38,525 nt of DNA from Clostridia bacterium (GTDB lineage Bacteria; Bacillota; Clostridia; Oscillospirales; Acutalibacteraceae): contig JAFYJR010000047.1 of the NCBI GenBank assembly GCA_017538005.1, forward strand, positions 1-38,525, read 5' to 3'. The position numbers and the translations under genes are program-made. Under the pieces are notes generated by a model. That model was not told the origin of the DNA and searched no databases. It saw only the letters and a list, made by a program, of their open reading frames with translations. Within the stretch, counting starts at the first letter, position 1; every line of letters starts with the position of its first letter. Shown here in pieces: positions 11,391-33,038 of this stretch.

Positions 11391-11521
11391 GTAAAACTGA
11401 AGATGACCATATGGTTTCGAGCAAAATAACCTAAGCTTTTGTATGGTTTTTTGCTAGGGTTTTGTCGGAAACGACAGGGCCTCCCGTTTTGGAAAGGAAT
11501 CATTCGATGACACGTATATTC
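11391..11521 (+). promoter_or_regulatory. Candidate Moco/Tuco (molybdenum/tungsten cofactor) riboswitch aptamer
   Basis: About 200-nt structured leader before a tungstate/molybdate transport plus Moco biosynthesis operon. Nested helices: AGCAAAA 11420-11426 / TTTTGCT 11449-11455, and AACC 11428-11431 / GGTT 11445-11448. GAAA-tetraloop hairpin TGTCG-GAAA-CGACA (11463-11476). This is followed by GGGCCUCCC (11477-11485), then GUUUU, then GGAAAGG (11491-11497). From memory that resembles the conserved core of the Moco RNA motif (Rfam RF01055). Not verified with a covariance model. Confidence 0.5.
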
Positions 11522-11558: not shown

Positions 11559-11591
11559 GCAAAAACTTTTAGCTAAAAGGAGATGTTCACT

Positions 11592-12623: not shown

Positions 12624-12631
12624 GGTAATTA

Positions 12632-13324
12632 ATGCAAAACATTTTTGTAAAAGCCATTGAGCTTATCGCGTCGCATGACCCTGAGCTCATAAGTATAGTT
12701 AAGATTACACTTAGAATGTGCTTTTCAAGCTCCCTTGTGGCACTCCTTTTAGGAGTGCCCTTTGGGGCTTTTTTGGCTTTAACCCGATTTCCCGGAAGAA
12801 GAGCGATAATAGTTTTAAACAGAACTTTGATGAGCATGCCGCCGGTTGTATGCGGTCTCATCTGCTATATCATGTTCTCGGGTGTGGGATCTCTTCGCGC
12901 GCTTGAACTTCTCTATACCGTAACCGGTATGGTAATAGCGCAGGTAATACTCATAACACCCATAGTCGCCGCAAACACGGAGACGTTTTTGTCCGGAATA
13001 GTTCCCGAACTTCGTGAGACCACAAAAGGTATGGGCCTCGGTTTTGGCAAGACGCTCGGCCTCACGATACTTGAAAGTAAATATCAGATAGTTTCGACCT
13101 ACCTTGTGGGATTTGCACGCTCGATAGCTGAGGTAGGTGCCGTATCAATGGTAGGTGGTGCCATTGTATACAAGACAAATGTCATGACCACCGCGATAAT
13201 GAACTATACAAGCAGAGGAAACTTCTCGAAGGCTATGGCCATAGGTATTATACTTATGACTCTCTCTCTGATTGTAAATATCATTGTTCATCTGATGTCC
13301 GAGAGGGTGGTGGATGACCGATGA
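12632..13324 (+). CDS. tupB: Tungstate/molybdate ABC transporter permease, TupB-like
   Basis: 230 aa with about 5 hydrophobic helices. MetI-type permease region (ETTKGMGLGFGKTLGLTILESKYQI). Lies directly between the binding protein and the ATPase. Confidence 0.75.
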   Translation: MQNIFVKAIELIASHDPELISIVKITLRMCFSSSLVALLLGVPFGAFLALTRFPGRRAIIVLNRTLMSMPPVVCGLICYIMFSGVGSLRALELLYTVTGMVIAQVILITPIVAANTETFLSGIVPELRETTKGMGLGFGKTLGLTILESKYQIVSTYLVGFARSIAEVGAVSMVGGAIVYKTNVMTTAIMNYTSRGNFSKAMAIGIILMTLSLIVNIIVHLMSERVVDDR

Positions 13325-13992
13325 AGATAACAAACATGAAAAAAACGTACGGCACAAAAGTCGCACTTGATATAGATGAACTCGAATTTGAAGACGGCAA
13401 GATTTACGCCATAGTCGGCGCGAACGGCAGCGGCAAGTCGACGCTTATACGCGCCATGGCGGGCACGATAAAAACGGACGACGGCAGGAAGGCTGATTTC
13501 GGCGGCAAAACACATTGTTATATGCCGCAGAAAAATCACGCCTTTAAGATGTCGACCGAAAAGAATGTACTGCTTGGCGCAAAGGGGGAAGACGCGAAAG
13601 GAAAAGCGAGCGCCCTGATGAAAGAGCTGAAGATAGATTCGCTGGCAAAGGCCAAGGCGCACAGGCTCTCCGGAGGAGAGACTGCCAAGATGGCTCTTTG
13701 CCGCACAATGCTCAGCGGAGCGCAGGTGCTGCTCCTGGATGAGCCTACAGCTGCAATGGACGTTGAGTCCACTTTGCTTGCAGAGGATATTATAAGAAGA
13801 TATAATAAAGACAACGGGGCGACAATAATCCTCATAACTCACTCGCTCAGCCAGGCAAAGCGCCTCGCGGATGAAATCATTTTCATGAAGGACGGTAAAA
13901 TCCTTGAAAAAGGCGAGACCGGTAAAATCCTGAGTAACCCCGAAAAAGCCGAGACAAAAGAATTCCTCGAATTTTTCAGTTCGGAGATATAG
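13321..13992 (+). CDS. tupC: ABC transporter ATP-binding protein, TupC-like (no C-terminal TOBE/Mop domain)
   Basis: Walker A GANGSGKST, signature LSGGETAKM, Walker B LLLDEPTAAMD, H-loop ITHS. 223 aa. ATGA overlap with tupB. Confidence 0.8.
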   Translation: MKITNMKKTYGTKVALDIDELEFEDGKIYAIVGANGSGKSTLIRAMAGTIKTDDGRKADFGGKTHCYMPQKNHAFKMSTEKNVLLGAKGEDAKGKASALMKELKIDSLAKAKAHRLSGGETAKMALCRTMLSGAQVLLLDEPTAAMDVESTLLAEDIIRRYNKDNGATIILITHSLSQAKRLADEIIFMKDGKILEKGETGKILSNPEKAETKEFLEFFSSEI

Positions 13993-14002
13993 CGGTTAAT
14001 GT

Positions 14003-14863
14003 ATGGAAAACAGAGAAATAGAATACTTTGACAACCTTTGGAATGAGTCCCATCCGAAAGACGGGATGAAACATACCAGGGAGACCTGGGACAGGCTTGC
14101 CGAAGGGTGGAATGATGACCCGGCAGAGGTCAGAAAGCAAAAGGATAAACAGTGTGACGATGTAACAGAGTTCTTTGTCGAAAGAGGAATTTTGACGAAG
14201 GACTCTGAAGTTGTCGATATAGGTTGCGGAGCGGGCACATATGCCGTCCGTTTTGCGCAAAAAGCGAAGTCGGTGACCTGTACCGACATATCCCCGAAAA
14301 TGCTTGATATCTGTAAAAAGACTGCTGATGAAGCAGGTATAAGCAATGTAAAATGCATCGAATGTGATTTTCTTGAATATGACGCTTCGGCCTGGGCAGA
14401 CAGATTTGATCTGGTGTTTACATCGCTCACACCTGCCATGAGCGGGGCGAAATCCGTTGAGAAAGTAAACGGGATCAGCAGGGGCTGGTGTTTCAACAAC
14501 AGTTTTGTCTACAGAAAAGACAACATCCGCAACGCGGTAATGAAGGATGTTTTCGGCAAAGAACCCACAAACAAGTGGGGCAACAGTTCGGTTTACTGTC
14601 TTTTCAACATACTCTGGCACATGGGCTTTTTGCCGGAACTTAAGTACTACAAGGAAATCATCGAATATGATTATGACCTCACTTACGATTTTGCGAAGGC
14701 TGTCGTTGTGAATATAATCAGGGACCGCGCGCCGACTGATGAAGAGGTAAAAAGAACTCTTGATTACCTCGAAAGGAATATGTCGGCGGACGGTAAAATT
14801 AAAAAAATAACCGAGTCACTTTACGGCTGGACATTTTGGAATGTTAAGGAGGGCAGAGCGTGA
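14003..14863 (+). CDS. Class I SAM-dependent methyltransferase, unknown substrate
   Basis: Motif I VVDIGCGAGTYAVRFA, acidic residue after beta-2 (CTDISPKM), motif post-I/II (ECDFLEY...FDLVFTS). 286 aa with a roughly 130-aa C-terminal extension. Its stop overlaps the moaA GTG start (GTGA). Confidence 0.8.
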   Translation: MENREIEYFDNLWNESHPKDGMKHTRETWDRLAEGWNDDPAEVRKQKDKQCDDVTEFFVERGILTKDSEVVDIGCGAGTYAVRFAQKAKSVTCTDISPKMLDICKKTADEAGISNVKCIECDFLEYDASAWADRFDLVFTSLTPAMSGAKSVEKVNGISRGWCFNNSFVYRKDNIRNAVMKDVFGKEPTNKWGNSSVYCLFNILWHMGFLPELKYYKEIIEYDYDLTYDFAKAVVVNIIRDRAPTDEEVKRTLDYLERNMSADGKIKKITESLYGWTFWNVKEGRA

Positions 14864-15840
14864 AGGACAGCTTCGGACGAAACATAGACTATCTTCGAAT
14901 ATCTGTCACAGACCGCTGTAATCTGCGCTGTGTCTACTGTATGCCGGAGGAGGGTGTCGAGCCCATCTCCCACGGCGATGTATTGTCATACGAAGAAACG
15001 ATAAGACTTGCGAGAATTTTCGCAAGTCTCGGCATAAAGGATATCAGGCTCACCGGAGGCGAGCCGCTTGTAAGAAAGGGTATTGAGAGCCTCATTGCCG
15101 ATATAAAAAAGATGCCCGGCATCGAGACCGTCAGCATAACCACGAACGGCATCCTCATACCGGAGAAGTTTGAGATGCTCAAAGCCGCGGGACTTGATGC
15201 CGTAAACATAAGCCTGGATACACTGAACAAAGAAAAGTTTGTAAAGATTACGAGACGGGAAGGTTTTGAGAAAGTAATCGAAGCCATAAAACTCTGTGAG
15301 GATCAGGGTATAAAAACCAAGGTTAACTGCGTCGCGATGAGAGGTGTAAATGACGACGAGTTTGCGTCAATTGCAAGTCTTGCGCTTGATCATAATATCT
15401 GCGTCAGGTTTATAGAATATATGCCCGTCGGCAAAAATGATTTCACGAAATGCGTTCCCACGGAAGAGATAAAAGAAAAGATTGAAGCAGTATACGGACC
15501 GCTTGAGAAGATAAATTCAGAAGGCTTCGGTCATGGTCCTGCGGTATACTATAAAGCGGAGGATTTCGTCGGAGCTATAGGCTTCATTTCTGCAATGACC
15601 TGCGCATTCTGTGAGTCCTGCAACCGTGTCCGACTTACGGCAGAGGGCTTTTTGAAGCTCTGCCTCCAGTATGACACGGGTGCTGATCTGCGCGGACCTT
15701 TAAGGGCAGGCGCGACAGATGAGGAAATAGCGAAAATCATTGAGGCGGCCGTCGCGCAAAAACCGAAGCAGCATACTTTCAACGATTACTTCGGCGCGGA
15801 CGACATTGATGACCGCGGTATGTCAAAGATAGGTGGATAG
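14860..15840 (+). CDS. moaA: GTP 3',8-cyclase MoaA (radical SAM)
   Basis: GTG start. YLRISVTDRCNLRCVYCMP radical-SAM CxxxCxxC cluster. C-terminal CAFCESCNRVRLTAEG auxiliary cluster. Ends in GG. Confidence 0.92.
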   Translation: MKDSFGRNIDYLRISVTDRCNLRCVYCMPEEGVEPISHGDVLSYEETIRLARIFASLGIKDIRLTGGEPLVRKGIESLIADIKKMPGIETVSITTNGILIPEKFEMLKAAGLDAVNISLDTLNKEKFVKITRREGFEKVIEAIKLCEDQGIKTKVNCVAMRGVNDDEFASIASLALDHNICVRFIEYMPVGKNDFTKCVPTEEIKEKIEAVYGPLEKINSEGFGHGPAVYYKAEDFVGAIGFISAMTCAFCESCNRVRLTAEGFLKLCLQYDTGADLRGPLRAGATDEEIAKIIEAAVAQKPKQHTFNDYFGADDIDDRGMSKIGG

Positions 15841-15841
15841 T

Positions 15842-16216
15842 ATGGTAGATTTAAATCAGTGGCTTCTTGAAGCCAAGGCCGACCCTTCAGCTGCGAAGTG
15901 CGGCATGTACCTGACACACAGCGGTGTTGTCAGGGAAACTGCAAAGGCGCAGGTGAGACAGGGTGTGGAGTCCGCGCCGGTAACGGGTATGTTCTTCTCC
16001 TATGACAAGGAGAAAGTCGATGCGGCGATAGAAGAGGCGTATACATTGCCCGGAATTTATTATATTCGTGTCTGGCTGGCAGAAGGTGAACTGTCTGTCG
16101 GCGATGACATTATGTATGTTCTGATAGGCGGCGATATCCGCCCGCATGTTATAGACGGCCTGCAGTTCCTGGTCGGTAAGATTAAGAGCGAATGTGTTAA
16201 GGAGATTGAAAGATGA
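15842..16216 (+). CDS. moaE: MoaE-like protein (molybdopterin synthase large subunit family), short form
   Basis: 124 aa. Aligns by eye with E. coli MoaE: THSGVVRE (GxVR), EGELSVGDDIMYVLIGGDIRPHV (IGEL.PGDEIV.V.V..HR), FLVGKIKSECVKEIE (DYLK....WKKE). ATG 15842 follows AGGTGGA. An alternative GTG lies at 15833. Confidence 0.6.
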   Translation: MVDLNQWLLEAKADPSAAKCGMYLTHSGVVRETAKAQVRQGVESAPVTGMFFSYDKEKVDAAIEEAYTLPGIYYIRVWLAEGELSVGDDIMYVLIGGDIRPHVIDGLQFLVGKIKSECVKEIER

Positions 16217-16719
16217 GTGAGCAGAAGATAATAAAGGCGGCAGTTTTGACTATGTCCGACAAGGGCTCAAAGGGTGAGCGCGAGGACCTGTCAGGTCCCG
16301 CGATAAAAGATTTCGTTGAGCCCTACGGCTATGAAGTAGTTGACTATAAAGTCATTCCTGATGACTTTGATGTGATAAGAAAAGAGATAAAGAGGATTGC
16401 CGATGAGGATGTGGCAAACGTCATATTCACGACGGGCGGCACGGGTTTCTCACAGCGCGATGTGACGCCCGAGGCCACAAAGTCCGTTTGCCACAGAGAT
16501 GTTCCGGGAATACCGGAGGCAATGCGCGCGGCATCAATGCAGATTACTAACAAAGCTATGCTTTCAAGAGCATACGCCGGCATAAGGAAGAACACTCTGG
16601 TAATAAATATGCCGGGTTCTCCCAAGGCGGTTGTTGAGAGCCTTGAAGTAATTATCGAGCCGCTTCGTCACGGCATTGAAATACTTATCGGTGACGCATC
16701 CGAATGCGCAAGGAAGTAA
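16213..16719 (+). CDS. moaB: MogA/MoaB-family molybdopterin adenylyltransferase
   Basis: 168 aa. AAVLTMSDKGSKGEREDLSGP...VIFTTGGTGFSQRDVTPEAT...GIRKNTLVINMPGSPKA, typical MoCF_biosynth domain. ATGA overlap with the upstream gene. Confidence 0.88.
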   Translation: MSEQKIIKAAVLTMSDKGSKGEREDLSGPAIKDFVEPYGYEVVDYKVIPDDFDVIRKEIKRIADEDVANVIFTTGGTGFSQRDVTPEATKSVCHRDVPGIPEAMRAASMQITNKAMLSRAYAGIRKNTLVINMPGSPKAVVESLEVIIEPLRHGIEILIGDASECARK

Positions 16720-16722
16720 AGT

Positions 16723-17940
16723 ATGTTAACTGTTAAAACTTCGAGTGAAGCTGAAAAGATAATAGCCGACACCTTCGGTGAAATCAGAACCGGAACTGAA
16801 GAAGTAACGCTTGCCTCTTCGGTCGGAAGAATTCTGGCTGTCGATATAGTTGCGACTGAAGATGTGCCGGGCTTTAACCGCTCAACCGTTGACGGCTATG
16901 CGGTGAAGGCCGCGGATACATTCGGCTGCTCTGATTCCATACCTGCAATACTTGATTTTGTCGGTGAAGTTTTAATGGGCGAGAGCCCGAAGTTTGAGAT
17001 TGGAAAGGACCAGTGCGCGTATGTGCCCACGGGCGGCGAGCTGCCGCAGGGCGCGGATGCCATGGTCATGCTTGAGTTTTCCGAGGACTACGGGGACGGC
17101 ACACGCGCCCTGTTAAAACCTTCTGCGCCGGGACAGCATGTCACTTTTGTGGGTGATGACGTAAAACGCGGCGCGGAGGTTTTAAAGGCAGGAACCTGCC
17201 TGGCGGCTCGCCATATCGGCGCCCTGGCCGCAATGGGATACTCTTCCGTTTCGGTGTACAAAAAACTGAAGGTTGCGGTTATCTCCACGGGCGACGAACT
17301 TGTTGATGTAACGGAAAGCCCTGTCGGCGCACAGGTAAGAGATATAAACAGTTATGAGATTTGTGCCGCCTTGGAAAAATTGGGTTGTGATTGCACAAGT
17401 TTCGGTATAGTTAAAGATGAGTTGCCGCTTTTAGAGAGTAAGGTAAAGGAAGCGGTGGACAATTTTGACATGCTTATCGTTTCCGGTGGCAGCTCAGTGG
17501 GTGTCAAGGATGCGACATTCAAAGTATATGACAAGCTCGGAGAGGTATTGTTTCATGGCATAGCGATAAAACCGGGTAAGCCTACAATCTGCGCAAGCAT
17601 AGAAGGCAAGCCGTGCTTCGGTTTGCCGGGACATCCTCTGGCCGCGTTTTATATTTTCAATCTCTTTGTAAAACCGCTTATACTGACAATGAGCGGAGCA
17701 TCAAAAGAGATGGTTCTGAAGAAGAGACTTCCTGTTACCCTCTCGATTCCGAGCAACCACGGAAGAGAGGAGTGCGTCGGGGTAAGGATAATTGATCGTG
17801 ACGGCAGGGAATATGCCGAGCCGGTTTACACCAAATCCGGACTTATAAGCACTCTGTCCGCTATCGACGGATTTGTCAGAATCGGCAGGGATGTGGAAGG
17901 AATCGGCGGCGGAGAAGAAGTTGAGGTGGAACTGTTTTGA
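16723..17940 (+). CDS. moeA: Molybdopterin molybdenum/tungsten transferase MoeA
   Basis: 405 aa. PGFNRSTVDGYAV, VAVISTGDELV, ISGGSSVG..D and [10 protein letters not shown] motifs of MoeA/gephyrin E. Confidence 0.9.
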   Translation: MLTVKTSSEAEKIIADTFGEIRTGTEEVTLASSVGRILAVDIVATEDVPGFNRSTVDGYAVKAADTFGCSDSIPAILDFVGEVLMGESPKFEIGKDQCAYVPTGGELPQGADAMVMLEFSEDYGDGTRALLKPSAPGQHVTFVGDDVKRGAEVLKAGTCLAARHIGALAAMGYSSVSVYKKLKVAVISTGDELVDVTESPVGAQVRDINSYEICAALEKLGCDCTSFGIVKDELPLLESKVKEAVDNFDMLIVSGGSSVGVKDATFKVYDKLGEVLFHGIAIKPGKPTICASIEGKPCFGLPGHPLAAFYIFNLFVKPLILTMSGASKEMVLKKRLPVTLSIPSNHGREECVGVRIIDRDGREYAEPVYTKSGLISTLSAIDGFVRIGRDVEGIGGGEEVEVELF

Positions 17941-19823
17941 AATATGAGTATCTGACAAACGAGGATCTGGCGGTTGCCGTTGAATCCTATATTGCTGTCT
18001 TAAAAAGCGGGGGCCTCGCTCCGAAAACAGAGACTGTTCCCGTCGCTGAGGCGGCAGGACGGATAACCGCGCACGCGGTTTATGCGCATATTTGCGCGCC
18101 TCATTACAATGCCTCCGCTATGGACGGCATTGCCCTTATGGCTTCGGTTACGTTCGGCGCGACGGAGACAACACCGGTACGCCTTACGGAGGATCAGTTC
18201 ATCCAGGTTGATACGGGCGACCCCATGCCCGAGATCACTGATGCCGTTGTAATGATCGAAGATGTCATACGTGACGGTGATGATGTTTTACTCTATACCG
18301 CGGCAGTACCTTGGCAGCATGTACGCCAGATAGGTGAGGATGTATGCGCGGGAGATATGATACTTCCGTCATACACGGAGATCACTCCGGCGGCACTCGG
18401 CGCCATGCTTGCGGGCGGTGTCCTTGAGGTTGATGTGGTAAAGGCGCCGGTCGTCGGTATAATACCGACGGGCGATGAAATCGTGCCGCCGTGCACCGAT
18501 CCCGCTCCCGGAGATATCATTGAGTTTAACTCAACAATATTCTCGGGTATACTTCAAAGCTGGGGAGCCGTTCCCAGGGTATATCCCATAGTCAAAGATA
18601 TAAAGGAAGATATCATCTCGGCGATGGAAAAAGCCGTTGCCGAGTGCGATGCCGTGCTTATAAACGCGGGCTCATCCGCAGGCAGAGACGACTACTCGTC
18701 TCTCGCCGTTTCGACGGTCGGCCGCGTCCTCTATCACGGCATCGCCATAAAACCCGGCAAGCCCGCCATATTGGGCTATGCTGACGCAAAACCCATCCTG
18801 GGCGTGCCGGGATATCCTGTCTCGGGTATCATAGTTCTTGATCAGATTTTCAGACCGGTCGTTGAAATAATGACCGGCAGAAATCTGCACAGGCAGACAG
18901 TTATAAAAGCATCTCTCGGCAGAGTGATGCTTTCGCCCCTGAAGTACAGGGAGTTTGTCAGGGCAAGAGTAGGCCTTGATGAAAACGGAAACTATATCGC
19001 CACACCTTTGAACAGGGGCGCGGGTGTTGTAACATCATTTGTCAAGGCAGACGGCATTATAGATATCCCTCAGGACTGCGAGGGCTATGAGGCGGGGGAT
19101 ACTGTCGATGTAACTCTCCTTCGCCCTAAGGCGGATATTGACAATACGCTGACCATAATCGGCAGTCACGACCCGCTTATTGATGAAGTCATCGATGTGC
19201 TGAAAATCGAAAACATCGATTCGGTTGTTTCTTCTTCACACGTCGGTTCCATGGGCGCGATAATGGCGATAAAGCGTGGGGAGGCCCAGATGGGCGCCAT
19301 CCACCTGCTTGATGAGGAGACCGGCGGATACAATGACTCCTACATTGCCAAGTACTTCCCAAACGGCGGTGTAAAGCTTGAAAAAGGTGTAAAGCGCGTT
19401 CAGGGAATAATGGTAGCGAAAGGAAATCCGAAGAACATCCGATCCTTTGCCGATCTGAAAAAAGAGGGCATCTCTTATGTCAATCGTCAGAAGGGAGCGG
19501 GCACCAGAATACTCTGCGACTTTCTTCTGAAGCAGAACGGTATGTCGCCGTCGGATCTCTACGGCTATGAGCGTGAGGAATTCACTCACACTTCCGTTGC
19601 CGCGCAGATTGCTTCCGGCACCGCTGACGCGGGCCTGGGCATTTACTCGGCCGCAAAAACATATGACCTTGATTTCATACCGGTGTGCAACGAGGAGTAT
19701 GACTTCCTTATAGACGAAAAGGCATTTTCTGATGAGAAGGTACAGAAGTTCCTGTCTGTACTTCACAGCGATGAGATAAAAGAGAGACTGAAGAGAATGG
19801 GAGGATATGAGACATGGGATTGA
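17937..19823 (+). CDS. Second MoeA paralogue fused to a C-terminal periplasmic-binding-protein-like (oxyanion-binding type) domain
   Basis: 628 aa. TTG start overlaps the moeA stop. The N-terminal 400 aa carry MoeA motifs ([42 protein letters not shown]). Residues from about 405 on (nt 19149-19823) look like the PBP-type domain found fused to MoeA and to molybdate/tungstate-responsive regulators (TIIGSHDP...[11 protein letters not shown]...[10 protein letters not shown]). Confidence 0.8.
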
Positions 19824-20281
19824 CGCATATTGATGAAAACGGCGCTGCGCGCATGGTTGATGTCGGCGACAAGGAATACACTCACAGAACGGCCAAAGCC
19901 CAGGCGGTCGTCACCATGAAGGCCGAGACGCTTGAGCTTATCAAAGAGGGTAATATCAAGAAGGGCGATGTATTCTCATGCGCCCGTATAGCCGGAATTA
20001 TGGCGGCAAAGAAGACTTTTGAAATAATCCCCATGTGTCATCCGCTGCCTCTTGAAAAGATTGCCGTGGATATTGAGGCAATAAATGATACACAGGTAAA
20101 AATAATCTCCACCGTGTCCTGTACGTACAAGACAGGGGTGGAGATGGAAGCTCTGACTGCGGCAAATGTGGCTGCTCTCACAATCTACGATATGTGTAAA
20201 GCGGTTGACCGCGGTATGGAAATTTCCGACTGTTTCCTTCTCTACAAAGACGGAGGAAAGTCAGGAGTTTTTGAAAGATAA
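19814..20281 (+). CDS. moaC: Cyclic pyranopterin monophosphate synthase MoaC
   Basis: 155 aa, [63 protein letters not shown]. 10-nt overlap with the upstream gene. Confidence 0.93.
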
Positions 20282-25735: not shown

Positions 25736-25750
25736 GACAAAAAAATAAAA

Positions 25751-25778
25751 CCCGCTCCGTTTTGGAGCGGGTTTTTTG
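25751..25778. terminator. Bidirectional rho-independent terminator between convergent genes
   Basis: CCCGCTCC (25751-25758) / GGAGCGGG (25764-25771), flanked by AAAAATAAAA upstream and TTTTTTG downstream. Confidence 0.85.
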
Positions 25779-25786
25779 TATTTGTT

Positions 25787-26998
25787 TTATTCGTCCAGTG
25801 CGTAAGCTGCCTCGAGAACTATCTTCATTGCGCTTTCAATCGCTTTTACATTTATGTTCTCTTCGTTGTCCATCTCCGTGCTGAAGTAGGCCGGATAGGT
25901 TTCTCCGAGGCTTGTTACGGTTGCGCAGGAATACTTGTTCTTTTTGAAAATTCTCATTGAACCGTTCTTTTTAATATACTTGGGAACAGTACTGAGAATT
26001 GTTACTTCCGCGTTTGAGGCGGCCGTGGCCAAAGCGTCGGTTGTGCCCTTGCCGGACGACAGCACGGTTATTGTGTCAGCGTTGAAAATTGAGTCAAGTG
26101 AAATGACTGTCGTCGCAACCGCCGCATCGTCTTCGGCATGGAATCTGCAATAGTCCCTGGCGCCCGCGCAGTCCGCGTTTTTGGCGCCTGTCAGGAGAAC
26201 ACAGAGCTCTGTGTTCTTCAGGCGCAGATCCATCTCGGACATATAGCGGAGGGCGCCTGCAGCTGTGTAACATCCTACAAGGTTATCCACAACACCGGGG
26301 AAGGAGGCACCTGCCTTGACGCTTCTTGAGAGCGCGAGGGGAATGAAGGCGAAGAGCGCAAGCGGAAAACTTATGTAGATAAACAACTTTGAAGCAAAGA
26401 ACTCAAGCTGGTCTTTCAGAATGAGAAAAGCAACAATGTCGAATACAAAGTATAATATGATGCCTATGAGTGTTATTGTCTTCAGAAGAACGACTTTTTT
26501 CGGGCTGAGATTACGCCTGAAAGGTGCATCGAGGTTTGCCTCTATTATTACACGCTTTTTTGCATCGCCTTCAGGCTTTCTTACGGCGTAGATATTCTGA
26601 CCGTCAACATTCTTTGAGGTTCCGCCGAAGACGCCGAAGAAACCGAGAAGAGAGAGGAAGGCCAGAACAAGGGCGACTATAAGGAGAACCTTTGAATAGT
26701 CGGGGAACATGCACGCGCAGATGGCTGCGGCGGCTGAAAGAATCATAAATATGAAGATGAGAAGATTTGAGAGGATGTAGGCTGCGCGGTCAGCGGAGAA
26801 GTTTTCCTCGTTTACCGTGTCACAGAAACCGGTGAGATCCTCTTTCAGTGTGTCCGCAAGTAATTTCTCATCAGGTCCGCAGGCCTGTCTTTTTGAGTTG
26901 TTGCCGGAAGTCGCGAAATTTTTCGCGGTTCTGGCGGCGTAGTTGCAGCATTCACGAAGTTTGCCCTCGTAGCGCTCGCTTGTTTCGGATGCTTTCAT
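25787..26998 (-). CDS. Multi-pass membrane protein resembling an M28-family metallopeptidase with degenerate active site
   Basis: 403 aa with own SD (GGAGG) 17 nt after the thiF-like stop. Four hydrophobic helices form two hairpins. The soluble segments follow the M28 motif order by eye: NIYAV...VIIEANLDA (cf GAHLDS), PGVVDNLVG (cf GAxDNASG), LLTGAKNADCAG (cf AEExGLxGS), ISLDS, YFSTEMD (cf YHTxxD). Confidence 0.55.
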   Translation of the reverse strand: MKASETSERYEGKLRECCNYAARTAKNFATSGNNSKRQACGPDEKLLADTLKEDLTGFCDTVNEENFSADRAAYILSNLLIFIFMILSAAAAICACMFPDYSKVLLIVALVLAFLSLLGFFGVFGGTSKNVDGQNIYAVRKPEGDAKKRVIIEANLDAPFRRNLSPKKVVLLKTITLIGIILYFVFDIVAFLILKDQLEFFASKLFIYISFPLALFAFIPLALSRSVKAGASFPGVVDNLVGCYTAAGALRYMSEMDLRLKNTELCVLLTGAKNADCAGARDYCRFHAEDDAAVATTVISLDSIFNADTITVLSSGKGTTDALATAASNAEVTILSTVPKYIKKNGSMRIFKKNKYSCATVTSLGETYPAYFSTEMDNEENINVKAIESAMKIVLEAAYALDE

Positions 26999-27015
26999 GA
27001 TAAAATACCTCCGGT

Positions 27016-27741
27016 TTATTTATGTTTTCCGCCGCAGACGGGACAGCCTTTTTTGAATTCCAGGGGAAGCTGTTCGAACTCCGCGAGCAGAGCATTGTAG
27101 TATAGAAGCTTGCCGGCAAGGGGTACTTCAAGACCCAGGAGATACTGGATTACCGAAGTGGCTTCGATGGAAGCTATGGTGCCGACTACGGATGAGAGGG
27201 AGCTGAATTTTTCTATGGGCGGCAGCTCCGTGCCGTAGAGACAGGCAAGGCAGGGTGTCTTGCCGGGTTCGATAAATACGGAGGTGCCGATAAATCCGTT
27301 GATTCCTCCGTCAACGAACGGCTTTTTAAGCTGCACGCAGGCCTCGTTGACTATCATTCTCGCCTGGACGCTGTCAACCGCGAGGGCGACGAGATCGTAT
27401 TGGCTGATAAGGTCTATGGCGTTGTCCGTTGAGATAGCCGTCGCGAGCGGAATAATCTGAATTCCGCTGTTGAACTGACGAAGTTTTTCCGCCGCGGACA
27501 CAACTTTGAGACCGCCTATGTCCTTCTCAAAGTGAATGAACTGGCGGTTGAGATTTGAGATATTTACAATATCGTTGTCGGCGATGCCTATGGTGCCCAC
27601 ACCTGCAGCCGCAAGGTGATAGAGAAGTGTGGTGCCGAGGCCTCCCGCTCCGATTACCAGAACACTTGCGTCTTCGAGTTTCTGCTGGCCGTCCTCGCCG
27701 AACTCCGGTATCATAATCTGTCGTGAATATCTGTCTGACAT
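27016..27741 (-). CDS. ThiF/MoeB/HesA-family E1-like adenylyltransferase
   Basis: RYSRQIMIPEFGEDGQQKL, Rossmann VLVIGAGGLGT, NLNRQ, and zinc CxxC pairs CLAC and CPVC. ATG 27741 (GGAGG 8 nt upstream) is preferred over the track's TTG at 27756. Confidence 0.88.
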   Translation of the reverse strand: MSDRYSRQIMIPEFGEDGQQKLEDASVLVIGAGGLGTTLLYHLAAAGVGTIGIADNDIVNISNLNRQFIHFEKDIGGLKVVSAAEKLRQFNSGIQIIPLATAISTDNAIDLISQYDLVALAVDSVQARMIVNEACVQLKKPFVDGGINGFIGTSVFIEPGKTPCLACLYGTELPPIEKFSSLSSVVGTIASIEATSVIQYLLGLEVPLAGKLLYYNALLAEFEQLPLEFKKGCPVCGGKHK

Positions 27742-27781
27742 TTGCCTGTCCTCCAAGGGAATTCCGTAAATAACAATGCCT

Positions 27782-27810
27782 ATTATAGCAATGCACCTAT
27801 TTAATGTCCA
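27782..27810 (-). promoter_or_regulatory. Promoter of the thiF-like operon (extended -10)
   Basis: Minus strand reads -35 TGGACA (27810-27805), 17-nt spacer, TGcTATAAT (27790-27782). Confidence 0.55.
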
Positions 27811-27833
27811 TATAAATATTTGACGAACTTTTA

Positions 27834-27862
27834 TTGCTAAAAATGTATATATAAGTTATAAT
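27834..27862 (+). promoter_or_regulatory. Promoter of the moaD-like/aor operon
   Basis: -35 TTGCTA (27834-27839), 17-nt spacer, -10 TATAAT (27857-27862). Back-to-back with the thiF-like promoter. Confidence 0.55.
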
Positions 27863-27908
27863 AATATGACTACATATGTCCATTAAATTTCGGAAAAGGA
27901 GCAACACA

Positions 27909-28142
27909 ATGAAAGTTGAATTTCACGGTCCCGGCGTCTGCGATTTCTCAAAGATGAATCCGGACGGAACCATTGATGTCCCGGAGGGAACAACCGTAAA
28001 GCAGTTTATAAAAATAGTGAAACTTCCGATAATATGGACAAAGGTATTTCCTTTTCTTGTAAATTATGAAAAGGTACCTTTGAACACAGTCCTTAAAGAC
28101 GGCGACATAGTAAGCGCATTCTCACCATCCGGTGGTGGTTAA
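27909..28142 (+). CDS. MoaD/ThiS-family ubiquitin-like sulfur-carrier protein (C-terminal GGG)
   Basis: 77 aa. Ends ...VNYEKVPLNTVLKDGDIVSAFSPSGGG-stop, the beta-grasp sulfur-carrier C-terminus. ATG 27909 has AAGGAG 7 nt upstream, whereas the track start 27876 has no SD. Confidence 0.75.
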   Translation: MKVEFHGPGVCDFSKMNPDGTIDVPEGTTVKQFIKIVKLPIIWTKVFPFLVNYEKVPLNTVLKDGDIVSAFSPSGGG

Positions 28143-28192
28143 ATACAGCGAACGATTTAGTTACGAATAAAAAAGAAAGTGGGAGATGAAAC

Positions 28193-30220
28193 ATGAAAGG
28201 ATATTGTGGAAAAATCCTCAAAGTAGACCTTACAAACAAGACATGTACAGACGTCTACATTGCGGATGAAATCTACGAAAACTTTCTCTCCGGCGCGGGA
28301 CTTGCTGCATGGTGGTGCTACAGGAATATCCCGGCCGAGTGCGACCCTATGGGTCCTGACAATGTCCTTTGCATTACTTCCGGTCTTTTGACGAGTACCG
28401 GTTCATGCATTACGGGACGTTGGATGGTCGTCACCAAATCGCCGTCGACCGGCGGTATCGGTGAGGCCAACTGCGGAGGTACTTTTGCTCCGTTTATCAA
28501 GGCATGCGGTTATGACATAATCGCATTCCACGGCGCATCAGACACCCCCGTATATCTTTACTGTGATAATAACGGTCCTGTTATCAAAGATGCTTCTCAT
28601 CTCTGGGGACAGGATGCTGCTGTCGCAGAAAGAATGATGGTCGAAGAGAACACGATTCCGGGCAAGAAAGTACCTCAGGCCTGCACAATAGGCTGGGCCG
28701 GCGAGAACAAGAGCTGGATGGCCGGCGTCTGCAACGACAACGGTCGTATTGCTGCGCGCCAGGGCGTCGGAGGTGTTATGGGCTCCAAGATGCTCAAGGG
28801 TCTTTGCTTTGCGGGTACAAAACCGGTTTCGGGTGAAAATCCGGCAGAGATCAGAAGACTTTCCAAGATGTGCGCAAGCCGTGTAAATAAGGCTTTCATG
28901 CCTCCGGAAATTCCGACAGGTCTTCTTAATGTCGCAAAATTCCTTCCCGAGATGCAGCTTTCTCCGGACGGAATCATGACAGGAGTTCTTATGGGTACAT
29001 GGGGCACCTGTGGTTCCTCACAGTTTGCAGGTCAGACAGGTGAGGCGCCGGTTAAGAACTGGGGCGGTTCCCAGAAAGAGGACTTCCACATCAAGGCTCT
29101 TTCCAGAACCGACGGTTCCAAGACCCTCAGACTCCAGACCAACCGTTATTACTGCTATTCATGCGTATACGGTTGCGGCGGCGAGCTTGATATTTCAAAG
29201 ATCAGATTTAATGATGAAGGTTACTCCAGAGTACATAAGCCCGAGTACGAGACTCAGTGGGTATTTACCGGCTTCCTCCTTAATGACGACAACGACTCGA
29301 TGCTCTACATTAACGAGTATGCAAACCGTGCCGGTATAGACACCATCTCTCTCGGCGGTACCGTAGGTATGGCCATAGAGGCATACGAGAACGGCCTTCT
29401 TAAAGAAGAAGACATCGGCTTCCCTCTTTCATGGGGTGACGCTGACAGCATTGTAAGACTCGTAAAGATGATTGTTCATCGCGAAGGCATAGGCGATATA
29501 CTCGCTGACGGTACAAAACGCGCAGTTGAAATCTTAGGTCCTGAGTTCGCAAAGTATGCTGTACAGGGCGGCGGCATGGAGCCTCCCATGCATGACTCCC
29601 GTCCCGACCCTCAGCAGGCAACACTTTACGCAATAGACGCCACACCTTCACGTCATACATCCGGCGGTTCGCTCTACTATGGCTGTATGCACCTCTGGAA
29701 GAAAGTTACCTGGGCGCCTCCGGCAGTTCTTGTCGGCGGTAAAGGCGGCGAGTGGGAGATCTCTGACGAAGAGGCTCTCAAAGTACTCGCATGCGCATAC
29801 TTCAAGCGTATCGTTGACGGTGTCGGCGGATGCTATTTCGGATTCCTTCTCGGTACCGGTATCTACCCGATCTTCGAGTGGACCGAAGCTGCGACAGGCT
29901 GGGGCGCTACACCCGATGACCTCATGTGGATAGGTAAACGCATCTACACCCTTCGCCACATGTTCAACATCAAGCAGGGTCTGGATCCCTGGTACTCACG
30001 TCCTCATCCCCGTATGGTAGGCGAGCCTCCGCTTAAGGTAGGTAAGGTAGCAGGCAAGACAGTTCCCATTGACGCCAAGATTATGCGCGTATGGAAGAAC
30101 TGCGGTTTCGATGAAAAGACAGGTTATCCTCTTCCTGAAACAGTTGAGGAACTCAACCTCAATTATTTCCTCGACAGCCCGATTGAAAACTTCATAAAGG
30201 AGGTACCGTGCAATGGCTAG
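28193..30220 (+). CDS. aor: Tungsten-dependent aldehyde:ferredoxin oxidoreductase family enzyme
   Basis: 675 aa. AOR N-terminal domain MKGYCGKILKVDLTNK..., GLAAWW, GRWMVVTKSPSTGGIGEANCGG. [4Fe-4S] motif CYSCVYGC (CxxCxxxC) plus a distal Cys (VGGCYFG). Confidence 0.9.
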   Translation: MKGYCGKILKVDLTNKTCTDVYIADEIYENFLSGAGLAAWWCYRNIPAECDPMGPDNVLCITSGLLTSTGSCITGRWMVVTKSPSTGGIGEANCGGTFAPFIKACGYDIIAFHGASDTPVYLYCDNNGPVIKDASHLWGQDAAVAERMMVEENTIPGKKVPQACTIGWAGENKSWMAGVCNDNGRIAARQGVGGVMGSKMLKGLCFAGTKPVSGENPAEIRRLSKMCASRVNKAFMPPEIPTGLLNVAKFLPEMQLSPDGIMTGVLMGTWGTCGSSQFAGQTGEAPVKNWGGSQKEDFHIKALSRTDGSKTLRLQTNRYYCYSCVYGCGGELDISKIRFNDEGYSRVHKPEYETQWVFTGFLLNDDNDSMLYINEYANRAGIDTISLGGTVGMAIEAYENGLLKEEDIGFPLSWGDADSIVRLVKMIVHREGIGDILADGTKRAVEILGPEFAKYAVQGGGMEPPMHDSRPDPQQATLYAIDATPSRHTSGGSLYYGCMHLWKKVTWAPPAVLVGGKGGEWEISDEEALKVLACAYFKRIVDGVGGCYFGFLLGTGIYPIFEWTEAATGWGATPDDLMWIGKRIYTLRHMFNIKQGLDPWYSRPHPRMVGEPPLKVGKVAGKTVPIDAKIMRVWKNCGFDEKTGYPLPETVEELNLNYFLDSPIENFIKEVPCNG

Positions 30221-30938
30221 CTATATACCTTTCATCAACTATGATCAGTGCTATGGCTGCAAGGCATGCCTTTACAATTGCCCGGTCAGCCTCTTTACGC
30301 TTTCGCATAAAGTTACACGCCGCGGTATGCTCCGTGAACTTCCTGCGACAACATACCTTGAGCGCTGCATAGGCTGCGGCGTGTGCGCACGCGCGTGCCC
30401 CGTTGAAGCCATAGACATGCTCAAGTGCCCTCCCGGCGAGGGTGAACCCGTATACATGGATTGGGACAAGCCCGTCTGGATTGACCCGAACACCTGCAAA
30501 GGCTGTACTGCCTGCGCGCGTGCCTGCCCGGCCAACGCAATTGTAAGCAAGGTCAAGCAACCTCACGTAATCGAGCAGGATAAGTGCATCCGCTGTGGCT
30601 GTTGTATCGAAAAGTGCAAGTTCAACAGCATTCACAACTCAGACGATCCCATTCCTGAGTATATCCCTCCGGTAGAGGAACCCAAGAAGGAAGAGGCCCC
30701 CAAGGCAGAAGCAAAAGCAGAAGCGCCCAAGGCCGCGCCTGCGCCTCAGGAGAAGATTGAAGGCAAATACAGCATCAATCCCGAGAAGTGCAAGGGCTGC
30801 ACCGCCTGCGCCCGCGTCTGCCCCGCTGAAGCAATCTCCGGCGAGGTCAAGCAGCCTCATGTCATAGACCAGGAGGCTTGCCTCGGCTGCGGCGCCTGCG
30901 CTGAAAAGTGCAAGTTTGACGCCATCTCTCAGAACTGA
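30213..30938 (+). CDS. Polyferredoxin with six [4Fe-4S] binding motifs (three 2x[4Fe-4S] modules), probable AOR electron-transfer subunit
   Basis: Six Cys motifs: CYGCKACLYNCP, CIGCGVCARACP, CKGCTACARACP, CIRCGCCIEKC, CKGCTACARVCP, CLGCGACAEKC. 8-nt overlap with aor (ATGGCTAG). Pro/Glu/Ala/Lys linker at aa 141-186. Confidence 0.9.
   Translation: MASYIPFINYDQCYGCKACLYNCPVSLFTLSHKVTRRGMLRELPATTYLERCIGCGVCARACPVEAIDMLKCPPGEGEPVYMDWDKPVWIDPNTCKGCTACARACPANAIVSKVKQPHVIEQDKCIRCGCCIEKCKFNSIHNSDDPIPEYIPPVEEPKKEEAPKAEAKAEAPKAAPAPQEKIEGKYSINPEKCKGCTACARVCPAEAISGEVKQPHVIDQEACLGCGACAEKCKFDAISQN
30495..30935 (+). repeat. Intragenic direct duplication of a 2x[4Fe-4S] module
   Basis: nt 30495-30632 (CKGCTACARACPANAIVSKVKQPHVIEQDKCIRCGCCIEKCKFNSI) and 30789-30935 (CKGCTACARVCPAEAISGEVKQPHVIDQEACLGCGACAEKCKFDAISQN) are clearly similar at protein and DNA level. 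They are separated by the low-complexity linker 30633-30770. Confidence 0.7.
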
Positions 30939-30958
30939 TTTAAAGGGAGGCGCGTGTA

Positions 30959-31354
30959 ATGAATCACTTCTTATCAGTCATTTCAGCAGTCATAAATGTC
31001 AATGTTTATTCAATAACCGTAAATGCCGATAATGTCGGCACGGTTGTTAAGTACAGACAACGGATTGACAGCGCTGAAATAAACAAACCTGAAGAAAATG
31101 AGACTGAAACAGAACCCGGCAAAGACTCGATTCTTACGCGTGTTGCCAAAGCTCTCTTGTCCGGCATTTCTGCTCATGTTGATGTGCATGTTTTCTCGGT
31201 TGAAGTCAATGGAAAAACAGTTGATGCGGTTTTGGAAACGGATGGTTTTTCCGTCACCAAACTTCCGGATCCCGCTGAAGACTCTGCTCCCGAACCCGTC
31301 AAAGTAACAAAGACCGAAAAGAAACCGGTCAAGAAAACTTCAACAAAGAAATAA
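30959..31354 (+). CDS. Hypothetical protein with internal duplication and lysine-rich tail
   Basis: 131 aa. Strong SD AGGGAGG 8 nt upstream. Same strand, 20 nt after the polyferredoxin and before the operon terminator. aa 4-31 and 66-93 are 12/28 identical. No family recognised. Confidence 0.65.
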   Translation: MNHFLSVISAVINVNVYSITVNADNVGTVVKYRQRIDSAEINKPEENETETEPGKDSILTRVAKALLSGISAHVDVHVFSVEVNGKTVDAVLETDGFSVTKLPDPAEDSAPEPVKVTKTEKKPVKKTSTKK

Positions 31355-31373
31355 CAGCAAAGAATAACAAAAA

Positions 31374-31413
31374 GACTCCCGAGCAACCGCTCGGGAGTCT
31401 CTTTATTTTTTTT
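31374..31413. terminator. Bidirectional rho-independent terminator
   Basis: 11-bp stem GACTCCCGAGC (31374-31384) / GCTCGGGAGTC (31389-31399), loop AACC, T-run TCTTTATTTTTTTT downstream and A-rich tract upstream. Lies between convergent operons. Confidence 0.88.
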
Positions 31414-31416
31414 GAT

Positions 31417-33000
31417 TTAAGCCATCTCTTTTTCTTTCTTGCTCAGGATATATGCTGCGCCGCAGAGGGCAGCTATGCTTATGGGATAGAAGGCAAGAGG
31501 AAGAGTGGTGTTGGTCGGGTAGTCGGTGGGAGCGATGACTTCGGGTTCTTCTACTGTGAAGTTTGCTGTGGCTTCACCGCCGTCGCTGAAGACTACCTTT
31601 AAGGTGTGGTCACCGGGTGAAAGCGTGCTTACAAAAGCTGCCGGGAAGGTTATTACCGTTGAGCCTTCGGTGGCCTTGTAATTTGATTTGTCGACTGCGG
31701 TTTCATCGATGAAAACTTTGCCTCCGTTTTTGAAGAGTGAGAAATCTGCATCGATGCGGAAGACGAGATCTTTGCCGCTGTTCGGATCAACACTCTGGCC
31801 TTTGCCCTCTGTTACATTGTATATTTCCGCGTTCGGTTTGAATGAGAAATAGAGGGTGAAATAGTCGGCGCCGAATGTGTTGTCAGGGCTGAGGACTATT
31901 TCCTCTGCGCCGGGGATGGTTATCTCAATGTCTTCGTTCGCCGCAAAAACAGCTGAATCAGAACTGAGGTTTACTTCTACACCGTATGTCTTGCCGGCTT
32001 CGAATTTGCCTTCGAAATACTCGTTTTCTTCGGGACCGTTTTCAGGGTCTGCCGGTATGCCGGTGAGGAAATAGGCGTTTGCCACTTCACAGGCTTTGCC
32101 GTTTACCGTGATTGTCGGAAGAAGGTCCGGGTAGTCCGCCGTTATTGTGTAGTCGGGAGCGAGTTCTATCTCCGTAGGGACAAACTTTACTTCATCCTTT
32201 ATTGTCGGAGGCGTGAATTTTAGCTCCGCTGTCTCTATTATTTCGGCCTCTTCCCAGCCGGCGTAAATCTCAACATCCTTTGTGAGCTTCTTGCCAAACT
32301 CATAGGCCTTTGTGCATTTCTTGTTTGCGTACCAGCCCGTGAAGTTGTAGCCGGCTCTTTCCGGATCAAACTCCGGTTTGGAGGATTCTGAACCTGAAGG
32401 TACTGTTATCTCTAATGTATAGTCCTCATCAGGGGAGTCCGGAATAACATGACAAATAATTGTGTTTGCTGTGTCACATTCCGTTGTGATGTAGAGTGTG
32501 AGCGAAAGGTTGTCGTTGTTTGGAGACAGCGTGTAGCCTTTGACATAGTAGGCGTCATCATTGACTGTAACTTTCAGTGAATCACTGAAGGTGTAGCCGG
32601 AATCCTTGTTCAGTGTTATGTTGAATGCTGCGATGTATTCCGTACCCTTTACAAAGCTGCCCTCGTAGAAGGTATAACCGTCATCTGCGAAGGGGCAGTC
32701 GTATGTGTCCGCACCTGTGACAACATAGGCATAGGCAGTGTCGTATTCTACTTCCCAGATTTCTTCAAAGTTGAAGTTTATGTAAGGTGTATTGGTCTGT
32801 TCGTTTACTTTGTACTGCTTGCCGTCCTCATCCTCGTATGTTACCTCGGAAACTTCCGTTTCTTCTCCGTCAACAGGCGGAAGAGTTAAGGTGACTTCAA
32901 ATTCGCTGATTGTGTTATCGTCAGCGGCGAATGCAGTAAGGGGCATGAGGGATACTGTGAGCATTACTGCCAGAAGACAGGCTAAAAGCTTCTTTTTCAT
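31417..33000 (-). CDS. Secreted cell-surface protein with Listeria-Bacteroides (InlB B-type) repeat and C-terminal hydrophobic anchor
   Basis: Signal peptide MKKKLLACLLAVMLTVSLMPLTAFA. GYNFTGWYANKKCTKAYEFGKKLTKDVEIYAGW matches the Flg_new/InlB-B repeat. C-terminal LPLAFYPISIAALCGAAYILSKKEKE is a hydrophobic helix plus basic tail with no clear LPxTG. Confidence 0.7.
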   Translation of the reverse strand: MKKKLLACLLAVMLTVSLMPLTAFAADDNTISEFEVTLTLPPVDGEETEVSEVTYEDEDGKQYKVNEQTNTPYINFNFEEIWEVEYDTAYAYVVTGADTYDCPFADDGYTFYEGSFVKGTEYIAAFNITLNKDSGYTFSDSLKVTVNDDAYYVKGYTLSPNNDNLSLTLYITTECDTANTIICHVIPDSPDEDYTLEITVPSGSESSKPEFDPERAGYNFTGWYANKKCTKAYEFGKKLTKDVEIYAGWEEAEIIETAELKFTPPTIKDEVKFVPTEIELAPDYTITADYPDLLPTITVNGKACEVANAYFLTGIPADPENGPEENEYFEGKFEAGKTYGVEVNLSSDSAVFAANEDIEITIPGAEEIVLSPDNTFGADYFTLYFSFKPNAEIYNVTEGKGQSVDPNSGKDLVFRIDADFSLFKNGGKVFIDETAVDKSNYKATEGSTVITFPAAFVSTLSPGDHTLKVVFSDGGEATANFTVEEPEVIAPTDYPTNTTLPLAFYPISIAALCGAAYILSKKEKEMA

Positions 33001-33038
33001 TTGTTTGCACCTCTTTTTGTTGTTTTGTGAGGTTTTAC

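Follow-up and report, generated by a model that had tools for sequence, protein, structure and literature searches.

A probable tungsten-enzyme cluster of a described type and its two neighbouring genes in an uncultured Acutalibacteraceae-type lineage

We analysed a stretch of 38,525 nucleotides (nt) from a Clostridia bacterium which makes up the entire contig JAFYJR010000047.1 (the window, to which all coordinates of open reading frames (ORFs) refer), and in it a group of six genes around aor, the gene of an AOR-family tungstopterin oxidoreductase, arranged back to back between two intrinsic-terminator-like hairpins (Table 1). The minus-strand unit consists of thiF, which encodes a MoeB/ThiF-type E1-like adenylyltransferase, and, only 17 nt after its stop, the gene of a membrane protein resembling M28 peptidases. 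The plus-strand unit opens with the gene of a moaD-like sulfur carrier, 50 nt ahead of aor, and continues with a polyferredoxin gene (fd), which overlaps aor by 8 nt, and with orf131, which starts 20 nt after fd, has GGGAGG 8 nt upstream of its start and is probably co-transcribed with the cluster. An earlier reading made from the letters and their translations (the sequence-only reading) had reported the six ORFs, the divergent promoter-like sites, the Shine-Dalgarno sequences and both terminators, and we find all of them at the places it gave; the 17-nt and 8-nt spacings, the six clusters of the polyferredoxin and the 77-residue ubiquitin-like protein (Ubl) ending in SPSGGG hold as well. Two starts can be refined: the thiF ORF as listed (27016-27756) opens on TTG, and translation more likely begins at the ATG at 27741, which GGAGGA precedes by 8 nt and which gives a product of the same length as its homologues, and the moaD-like ORF as listed (27876-28142) has its true start at the ATG at 27909, with GGAG upstream. 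Both promoter-like sites rank in the top three of the 14 sites of the region (shuffled sequences give 5.6 ± 2.2 sites), and the minus-strand one also has the extended TG. We consider it likely that the region represents an already described type of tungsten-enzyme cluster, made of the moaD-like gene, aor, the polyferredoxin gene and the divergent E1 gene, accompanied by two passenger genes.

Table 1. Features of the window, in order of position (aa, amino acids; bp, base pairs; Moco and Tuco, molybdenum and tungsten cofactor; TM, transmembrane).
Feature	Coordinates	Strand	Description
Moco/Tuco riboswitch aptamer	11403-11515	+	RF01055, 65.1 bits vs gathering score 36
tupABC-like tungstate ABC transporter	11583-13992	+	Pfam PBP_like_2, BPD_transp_1, ABC_tran
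Pterin-cofactor (moa) operon	14860-20281	+	moaA, moaE-like (weak), mog/moaB, moeA, moeA-PBP fusion, moaC; Pfam
Bidirectional intrinsic-terminator-like hairpin, closes minus-strand unit	25747-25775		12-13 bp stem, T-runs on both strands
M28-like pseudo-peptidase	25787-26998	-	403 aa; Pfam Peptidase_M28 7.6e-07 on residues 234-397
moeB/thiF-type E1-like adenylyltransferase (thiF)	27016-27741	-	241 aa from ATG; without rhodanese domain; Pfam ThiF
Divergent promoter-like site	27810-27782	-	consensus score 11/12
Divergent promoter-like site	27834-27862	+	consensus score 10/12
moaD-like sulfur carrier	27909-28142	+	77 aa, beta-grasp, C-terminus SPSGGG; Pfam ThiS
aor, AOR-family tungstopterin oxidoreductase catalytic subunit	28193-30220	+	675 aa; AFOR_N + AFOR_C
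Polyferredoxin small subunit (fd)	30213-30938	+	241 aa; six [4Fe-4S] motifs, six Fer4 stretches
orf131, orphan with internal duplication	30959-31354	+	131 aa; without significant Pfam match
Bidirectional intrinsic-terminator-like hairpin, closes plus-strand unit	31366-31407		12-19 bp stem, T-runs on both strands
527-aa surface protein	31417-33000	-	Listeria-Bacteroides repeat (Flg_new), C-terminal TM anchor

The product of aor matches both AFOR domains strongly (Pfam, AFOR_N 7.2e-59 and AFOR_C 1.6e-78) and carries the CxxCxxxC motif in the form CYSCVYGC, and its nearest solved structures are P. furiosus AOR (1aor, 5.5e-74) and Aromatoleum AorB (8c0z). The genomic context, namely the tup-like transporter and the P3-less riboswitch described below, favours tungsten as the metal of this predicted W-bis-pyranopterin enzyme. 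The polyferredoxin contains six CxxCxxCxxxC motifs in the window compared to four in most orthologues, the four-cluster form of the relatives being the typical version of two-subunit AOR enzymes; six-cluster versions are found also in the related loci L001, L010, L016 and L021. In sequence the additional C-terminal two-cluster module behind a Lys/Ala/Pro-rich linker (residues ~186-241) is very close to residues ~88-143, which points to a recent duplication within the gene. Among PDB sequences the polyferredoxin best matches FwdF, MvhB and HydB-type ferredoxin domains, and AorA and WOR5-beta are not among the matches listed at E ≤ 1e-8. Polyferredoxin subunits are established partners of AOR-family catalytic subunits, as AorA, Wor1S, WOR5/ASOR-beta and BamC are (PMC12096430), and the combination of an AFOR subunit with an overlapping gene for a small multi-[4Fe-4S] protein is shared with Aromatoleum AorAB, P. 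furiosus WOR5/ASOR, Wor1LS of gut bacteria and Geobacter BamBC. The aor operon of Aromatoleum includes MoaD-like aorD and aorE (PMC6365974). It differs from the arrangement in the window in that aorA comes first there while the order here is moaD-aor-fd, and neither an AorC subunit (binding flavin adenine dinucleotide) nor a HydABC-like module is found nearby.

The carrier protein matches the generic Pfam family ThiS above its cut-off (2.1e-07, 31.8 bits vs 22.5) and the moaD_arch model weakly. Seventeen distinct sequences of AOR-linked orthologues were extracted from related loci, and the C-terminal Gly-Gly is invariant among them; no other small ORF ending in Gly-Gly exists in the whole 38.5-kb window. 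The E1 (Pfam ThiF 5.4e-68, 229 bits) has all of its motifs intact: GAGGLG, NLNRQ, the lysine (in GLKV), the aspartate (in AVDSV) and two CxxC pairs (CLAC and CPVC). Its best NCBIfam models are those of MoeB (224 bits vs a cut-off of 449, and 199 vs 266), and the ThiF model TIGR02356 scores 190 vs 275, all NCBIfam equivalog cut-offs being missed. An invariant N-terminal Cys-Cys (RECCNYA) could be imagined as a persulfide relay for the E1, which has no rhodanese domain; this idea is pure speculation and we did not adopt it. At this site the outgroups have RE-x-(T/S)-N-(Y/F), without cysteines, and the thiF-linked outgroup shows CS.

The tungsten context continues upstream. The riboswitch aptamer lies 68 nt upstream of the tupA-like gene, and in its alignment the model positions ~58-73, which correspond to P3, are deleted. 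P3-less variants of this class correlate almost perfectly with tungsten-cofactor metabolism (Regulski et al., 2008; PMC2408646). The tup-moa operon is thereby predicted to stand under the control of a P3-less, tungsten-type cofactor riboswitch; the AOR operon itself is without one. The best NCBIfam matches of the transporter are TupA (128 bits) and TupB (118 bits), both under the equivalog cut-offs. A gene for an S-adenosylmethionine-dependent methyltransferase (14003-14863) sits between the tupC-like gene and moaA. The moa operon, which is 7.6 kb distant from the AOR cluster, contains two tandem moeA paralogues (16723-19823, plus strand), the second of which is fused to a periplasmic-binding-protein-like (PBP_like) domain and reaches the PRK14498 equivalog (711.6 bits vs a cut-off of 534). 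According to Pfam both moaD and moeB are absent from this operon, in agreement with the sequence-only reading, which had noted a moaE-like gene there and no moaD or moeB. Since the main moa operon lacks the two genes, the AOR-linked moaD/E1 pair is probably the only one of the cell.

An arrangement of this kind has been described. In their survey Iyer, Burroughs and Aravind found MoaD genes strictly adjacent to AOR genes (Iyer et al., 2006, Genome Biol 7:R60; PMC1779556, Table 1 row 3), in neighbourhoods which often include MoeB and a 4Fe-4S ferredoxin and which form a probable mobile cluster apart from the main Moco operon, and proposed that the AOR-linked MoaDs make molybdopterin for the tungsten cofactor of AOR (PMC1779556). 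The window has the same moaD beside aor, a MoeB-type E1, a ferredoxin and a separate moa operon, and departs from the published neighbourhood in that its main moa operon is devoid of moaD and moeB and in that a pyridine-disulfide oxidoreductase is lacking. The simplest explanation given in the sequence-only reading, that the sulfur-carrier pair has been moved beside its client AOR, fits well with the pair next to aor and the moa operon without both genes, and had in fact already been published (PMC1779556). From family membership the following sequence of events can be expected. The E1 would adenylate the C-terminal Gly-Gly of the carrier, which a sulfur donor would then turn into a thiocarboxylate. 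With the MoaE-like subunit, whose gene lies 12 kb upstream, the carrier would make molybdopterin from cyclic pyranopterin monophosphate, and MoeA would insert tungsten imported by the Tup-like transporter. The resulting W-bis-pterin cofactor would be loaded into AOR, and the polyferredoxin would wire the [4Fe-4S] cluster of AOR to ferredoxin or another redox partner. With the P3-less riboswitch, Tup-like transporter, moa genes, MoaD/MoeB pair and AOR with its polyferredoxin, an uncultured lineage of Acutalibacteraceae type from gut and rumen would possess a complete tungsten system, which is of use in predicting where among the Clostridia of these habitats aldehydes and acids can be detoxified or interconverted.

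For the comparison of gene neighbourhoods we scanned GTDB species genomes with an alignment of the M28-like family, which gave 36 loci, all from gut/rumen Oscillospirales-type metagenome-assembled genomes (MAGs; for example Acutalibacteraceae and Candidatus Limimonas), and added eight further loci from exact-protein look-ups; gene content was determined by tblastn with the window proteins in loci spanning ±10 kb. In all of the 34 species loci with upstream DNA thiF lies upstream of the M28-like gene on the same strand. The fd-aor-moaD cassette, divergent from thiF, is present in 16 of these 34, missing in another 16, and two loci are too short to tell. Where it is missing, it is absent as a block, and an FGGY kinase gene is found directly upstream of thiF in all 16 cases. 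The moaD-like gene stands immediately beside aor in each of the 16 AOR-bearing species loci and is never retained without it. Nine cassette-bearing loci show moa genes (moaC, moeA-PBP, moaE or moaA) near SBP5, while none are found near SBP5 in the cassette-less loci which have downstream DNA; in the sister clades the syntenic positions lack the AOR cassette as well as the moa genes. Presence or absence as a block between conserved flanks is what one would see with the mobile cluster of Iyer et al.; in contrast to the published neighbourhood, the E1 is kept here even where the cassette is missing.

All cassette-bearing loci have the thiF motifs (GxGxxG, the arginine of NLxRQ, the lysine, the aspartate and the two CxxC) in canonical form, with the single exception of L043 (NLNNQ). 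In clade B1, with 11 cassette-less loci, GAGGLG has become GA(S/T)SIG, the arginine of NLxRQ is lost and the catalytic aspartate is replaced by asparagine, and judging from these changes the product may be a pseudo-E1. Among the other cassette-less loci, L026 has the same Asp to Asn replacement, L037 and L041 have Asn in place of Arg, and thiF of clade B2 is intact. Since an intact active site correlates with the presence of the cassette, a MoeB role of the E1 is supported. Clade B1 (L006-L008, L022, L028, L032, L034, L036 and L038-L040; for example thiF at L006:7222-7998) is the most abundant lineage in the databases, and in it thiF is always 0-4 nt upstream of the M28-like gene. A search for a hidden Ubl near thiF in 13 AOR-less loci gave no ORF of 45-130 residues ending in Gly-Gly within ±10 kb.

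These observations bear on whether the E1 and the 77-residue Ubl could instead be a ThiF/ThiS pair for thiamine, or another thiocarboxylate pair, which merely happens to stand beside aor. The E1 scores alike against MoeB, ThiF and SAMP-E1 models and stays below the cut-off with all of them, the Ubl fits the generic ThiS family better than moaD_arch, and a thiamine pyrophosphokinase gene accompanies the thiF/M28-like pair in some AOR-less loci. We nevertheless regard such a pair as very unlikely: the Ubl gene always stands directly beside aor and is present or absent together with it, in agreement with the published AOR-linked MoaD class (PMC1779556); the moa operon has a moaE and neither a moaD nor a moeB; thiG, thiH, thiC and thiE are absent from the window; and the thiF motifs are canonical where aor is present (L043 excepted) and erode where it is absent. 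The kinase gene is found in clade B1, directly downstream of the M28-like gene on the opposite strand (L006:9259-9966, minus strand), and may be there by coincidence or as a hint of a thiamine-salvage context for the thiF homologue.

What, then, is the M28-like protein? An alignment-based AlphaFold (AF2) model of its 403 residues (pLDDT 85.9, pTM 0.80) contains four long helices (74-97, 99-120, 166-194 and 206-224), as the sequence-only reading had claimed for its four TM segments. In a Foldseek comparison with the PDB the model matched the M28 aminopeptidases of Aeromonas (AAP), S. griseus (SGAP) and B. subtilis (BSAP) (1amp, 1xjo, 6hc6), glutaminyl cyclases and the transferrin receptor, which is itself a pseudo-enzyme with the M28 fold; the M28 matches have target-normalised TM-scores of 0.73-0.79 and E values of 1e-8 to 1e-11 at only 9-12% identity. 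The protein as modelled is a complete M28 alpha/beta domain interrupted by two TM hairpins. A profile search of PDB sequences returned nothing meaningful for it, and the relationship is visible only through the fold comparison and Pfam. Since there is no signal peptide, the soluble parts are all predicted to be on the cytoplasmic side.

The zinc site was mapped by profile alignment (hhalign) to the 1AMP sequence, identical to the PDB entry, and is given here in AAP numbering. The bridging ligand Asp117 is kept as D238, while the catalytic base Glu151 corresponds to the invariant K273 and the zinc ligand Glu152 to N274. Alignment of the motifs places the invariant N155 at His97 (EANLDAP vs GGHLDS) and a variable position, not a histidine, at His256. 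An equivalent of Asp179 is retained, and the clade signature reads N-D-K-N-D-x. Because zinc ligands and the catalytic glutamate are replaced, the protein should be unable to work as a di-zinc peptidase and is predicted to be catalytically dead, which bears out the pseudo-peptidase call of the sequence-only reading; the changes are His97 to Asn, Glu151 to Lys, Glu152 to Asn, and loss of His256. Compared with family M28 enzymes (1AMP, SGAP, BSAP), therefore, the full alpha/beta fold and the equivalents of Asp117 and Asp179 are shared, while the two inserted TM hairpins and the lost zinc site set the window protein apart.

The other gene that has no place in the published cluster type is orf131. 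It has a single relative, with 97% identity, among 5.8 billion proteins, and tblastn against about 40 related loci gave no match. In the closest relatives, L001 and L010, the match of the DNA to the window stops with fd (~30944) and resumes at ~33034, at the end of a malic-enzyme gene, so that fd and the malic-enzyme gene are only ~55 nt apart there. As L001 and L010 match both sides without the intervening ~2.09 kb, this piece (window ~30945-33033), which holds orf131 on the plus strand and the gene of the 527-residue surface protein, is an insertion specific to the lineage of the window. The label of a repeat protein given by the sequence-only reading was justified, since the internal duplication is real (residues 5-33 vs 66-94). 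A single-sequence AF2 model is uninformative (pLDDT 40.4). With its good Shine-Dalgarno sequence and the terminator downstream orf131 may well be expressed; from its distribution it appears to be a lineage-specific orphan passenger and not a conserved component of the cluster.

The sequence-only reading had also proposed that the six genes may form a dedicated maturation or membrane-docking module for AOR. In such a module the E1 and the pseudo-peptidase would mature or tether the enzyme, and the repeat protein would act together with the polyferredoxin. The compactness of the six genes between two strong terminators, the divergent promoter-like sites, the 17 nt between thiF and the M28-like gene and the close, well-primed start of orf131 after fd all made this attractive. 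It does not survive the comparison with relatives and we now regard it as highly improbable: orf131 has no homologue in the related loci and sits in the insertion, the M28-like gene is conserved in 16 species without aor, moaD and fd and is not adjacent to thiF in most AOR-bearing ones, and its soluble domain, predicted to be cytoplasmic and dead, has no tie to AOR. Since it stays beside thiF with or without the cassette, the M28-like protein would be a membrane-tethered dead peptidase and long-standing neighbour of thiF in this lineage, and not a maturation or docking factor of AOR. The apparent six-gene system is best seen as the published four-gene cluster type plus neighbours and is not to be counted as a new system of AOR maturation.

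The check which the sequence-only reading had named for its two unknown proteins, linkage of their homologues to the cluster in other genomes, thus came out differently for the two: orf131 has no linkage, and the M28-like gene has no conserved linkage to aor or moaD but a robust one to thiF, restricted to one lineage. Being retained in 16 AOR-less species, and with thiF missing from four of five outgroups, this linkage is lineage-specific and independent of AOR. In the nearest outgroup (P0129, locus L046) the M28-like protein is 28% identical and a thiF homologue (56%) lies 10 nt upstream, with GH3 downstream. The four other outgroup M28 homologues (24-30% identity), three of them catalytically degenerate and one intact, have unrelated neighbours without thiF. 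Most cassette-less species have the two genes tightly packed, overlapping by up to 4 nt or separated by up to 33 nt. Among the 16 cassette-bearing species loci, 13 show a distance of 0.86-1.9 kb between them; the three AOR-bearing loci in which they adjoin are the window (17 nt), L020 (1 nt) and L043 (-1 nt).

Selection on the two genes was estimated as omega, from pairwise Nei-Gojobori estimates at unsaturated dS. In clade B1, with the eroded motifs, omega is 0.05-0.14 for thiF and 0.08-0.23 for the M28-like gene; in clade B2, with intact motifs, it is 0.01-0.04 and 0.02-0.06, respectively. Both genes are therefore under purifying selection without AOR. That the ORF is kept although its ATP site has eroded hints at another role of the E1, possibly a non-catalytic one, for which the M28-like protein would be a candidate partner.

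From this follows an alternative for the minus-strand unit, that the E1 and the membrane pseudo-M28 are a real two-gene functional module with a role independent of the tungsten enzyme. The pseudo-M28 might anchor the E1 at the membrane, regulate it or serve it as an adaptor, or might do this for a second Ubl or sulfur-carrier pathway that is unlinked, with the E1 serving also as MoeB in AOR-bearing species, and such a module would be compatible with the cluster-type interpretation of the other four genes. The constant order and strand of the two genes in all 34 species loci, their tight spacing in most AOR-less species and in three AOR-bearing ones, the recurrence of the pair in the L046 outgroup and its survival in clade B2, where the downstream synteny is broken (GH3 is not present there), all speak for it, as does the purifying selection, above all on the B1 thiF, with an omega of about 0.1 in spite of GASSIG in the ATP site. 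However, the linked cases all come from one family-level lineage with a conserved order of FGGY ... GH3, SBP5, and inheritance may explain much of the pattern; in 13 of the 16 AOR-bearing species the operon is interrupted by an unrelated gene on the other strand; the four outgroup homologues without thiF include three that are also degenerate; and a literature search for ThiF or MoeB associated with M28 found nothing relevant. On balance we hold the two-gene module to be unlikely, though with a real chance of being correct. In its strict form, an obligate and undescribed module in which a cytoplasm-facing dead-peptidase scaffold binds or regulates the E1 independently of tungsten-cofactor synthesis, both proteins being pseudo-enzymes in the AOR-less rumen and gut lineages and the E1 there being kept by selection despite the loss of the Gly, Arg and Asp of its ATP site, it seems to us improbable.

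A published cluster type with two passenger genes remains our preferred explanation of the region, and several points have to be set against it. The E1, whose sequence lies below every equivalog cut-off, may be a MoeB, a ThiF or a shared E1. A second moaD-moeB pair could exist elsewhere in the genome, since the window is the whole contig, and the operon structure is drawn from spacing and consensus motifs only. Simple drift would predict a looser and less persistent association of thiF with the M28-like gene than the one observed, which recurs in the outgroup at 28% identity, and as both genes are under selection in species without AOR, the M28-like gene may have a real functional tie to thiF that the word neighbour plays down.

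The combination of an E1-like gene with neighbours that encode a peptidase fold and a Ubl with terminal Gly-Gly is also reminiscent of the bacterial E1 + Ubl + JAB operons and of Cap2/Cap3 in CBASS. Unlike those systems, the locus has neither a JAB/JAMM protein nor an E2, its peptidase fold is M28 and inactive, and its Ubl travels with aor instead of with the E1/M28-like pair. We rejected an interpretation of the three genes as an anti-phage E1/E2/JAB system of CBASS Cap2-like or 6A-MBL type: PADLOC gave only generic, partial similarity to the E1 domains of its E1-E2 models (≤ 57 bits), and its models did not match the M28-like protein, the Ubl or orf131.

The M28-like protein leads to a larger family with the same TM-split architecture. 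An exhaustive hidden Markov model search retrieved 733 cluster representatives at E ≤ 1e-3, of which 371 reach ≤ 1e-10 and 74 reach ≤ 1e-30 (clusters at 50% identity, nearly all of ~400 residues and aligned over the full length). Among 129 full-length representatives, about 80 have the complete H-D-E-E-D/E-H signature, and about 45 are degenerate in assorted ways, the clade of the window included; the zinc site has been lost independently in several sub-lineages. We found no characterisation of this architecture, and the window protein looks like a dead offshoot of a large, mostly intact and apparently uncharacterised family. Family examples are P0122-P0270, such as P0136 (L050:1546-2805). In our opinion both this family and its dead branch, paired with an E1 that persists and partly decays after the loss of its client, are worth specialist attention.

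We examined 15 gaps between thiF and the M28-like gene, two from cassette-less loci and the others from 13 distinct cassette-bearing loci, and in all of these 13 the gap contains the opposite-strand gene. Its product is a secreted protein that has a signal peptide and, at the C-terminal end, an (I/V)A(N/Q)TGD motif, after which come a TM helix and a tail rich in lysine; in 12 of the 13 it looks like a sortase-type surface protein with a non-canonical-looking sorting signal, unrelated to cofactors. Examples are L001:6832-7743, L003:6971-7732 and L012:8648-9553, all on the minus strand, with no counterpart in the window. A relocation of this gene, with the 527-residue surface protein or orf131 as its counterpart, is not supported, as no significant similarity was found. 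Finally, five of the compared loci (L024, L027, L030, L031 and L033) are labelled Bacteroidaceae, Paludibacteraceae, Muribaculaceae or Phascolarctobacterium; they show the Clostridia-type FGGY-thiF-M28 synteny and 95-100% mutual protein identity, and probably represent mislabelled or mis-binned MAGs.

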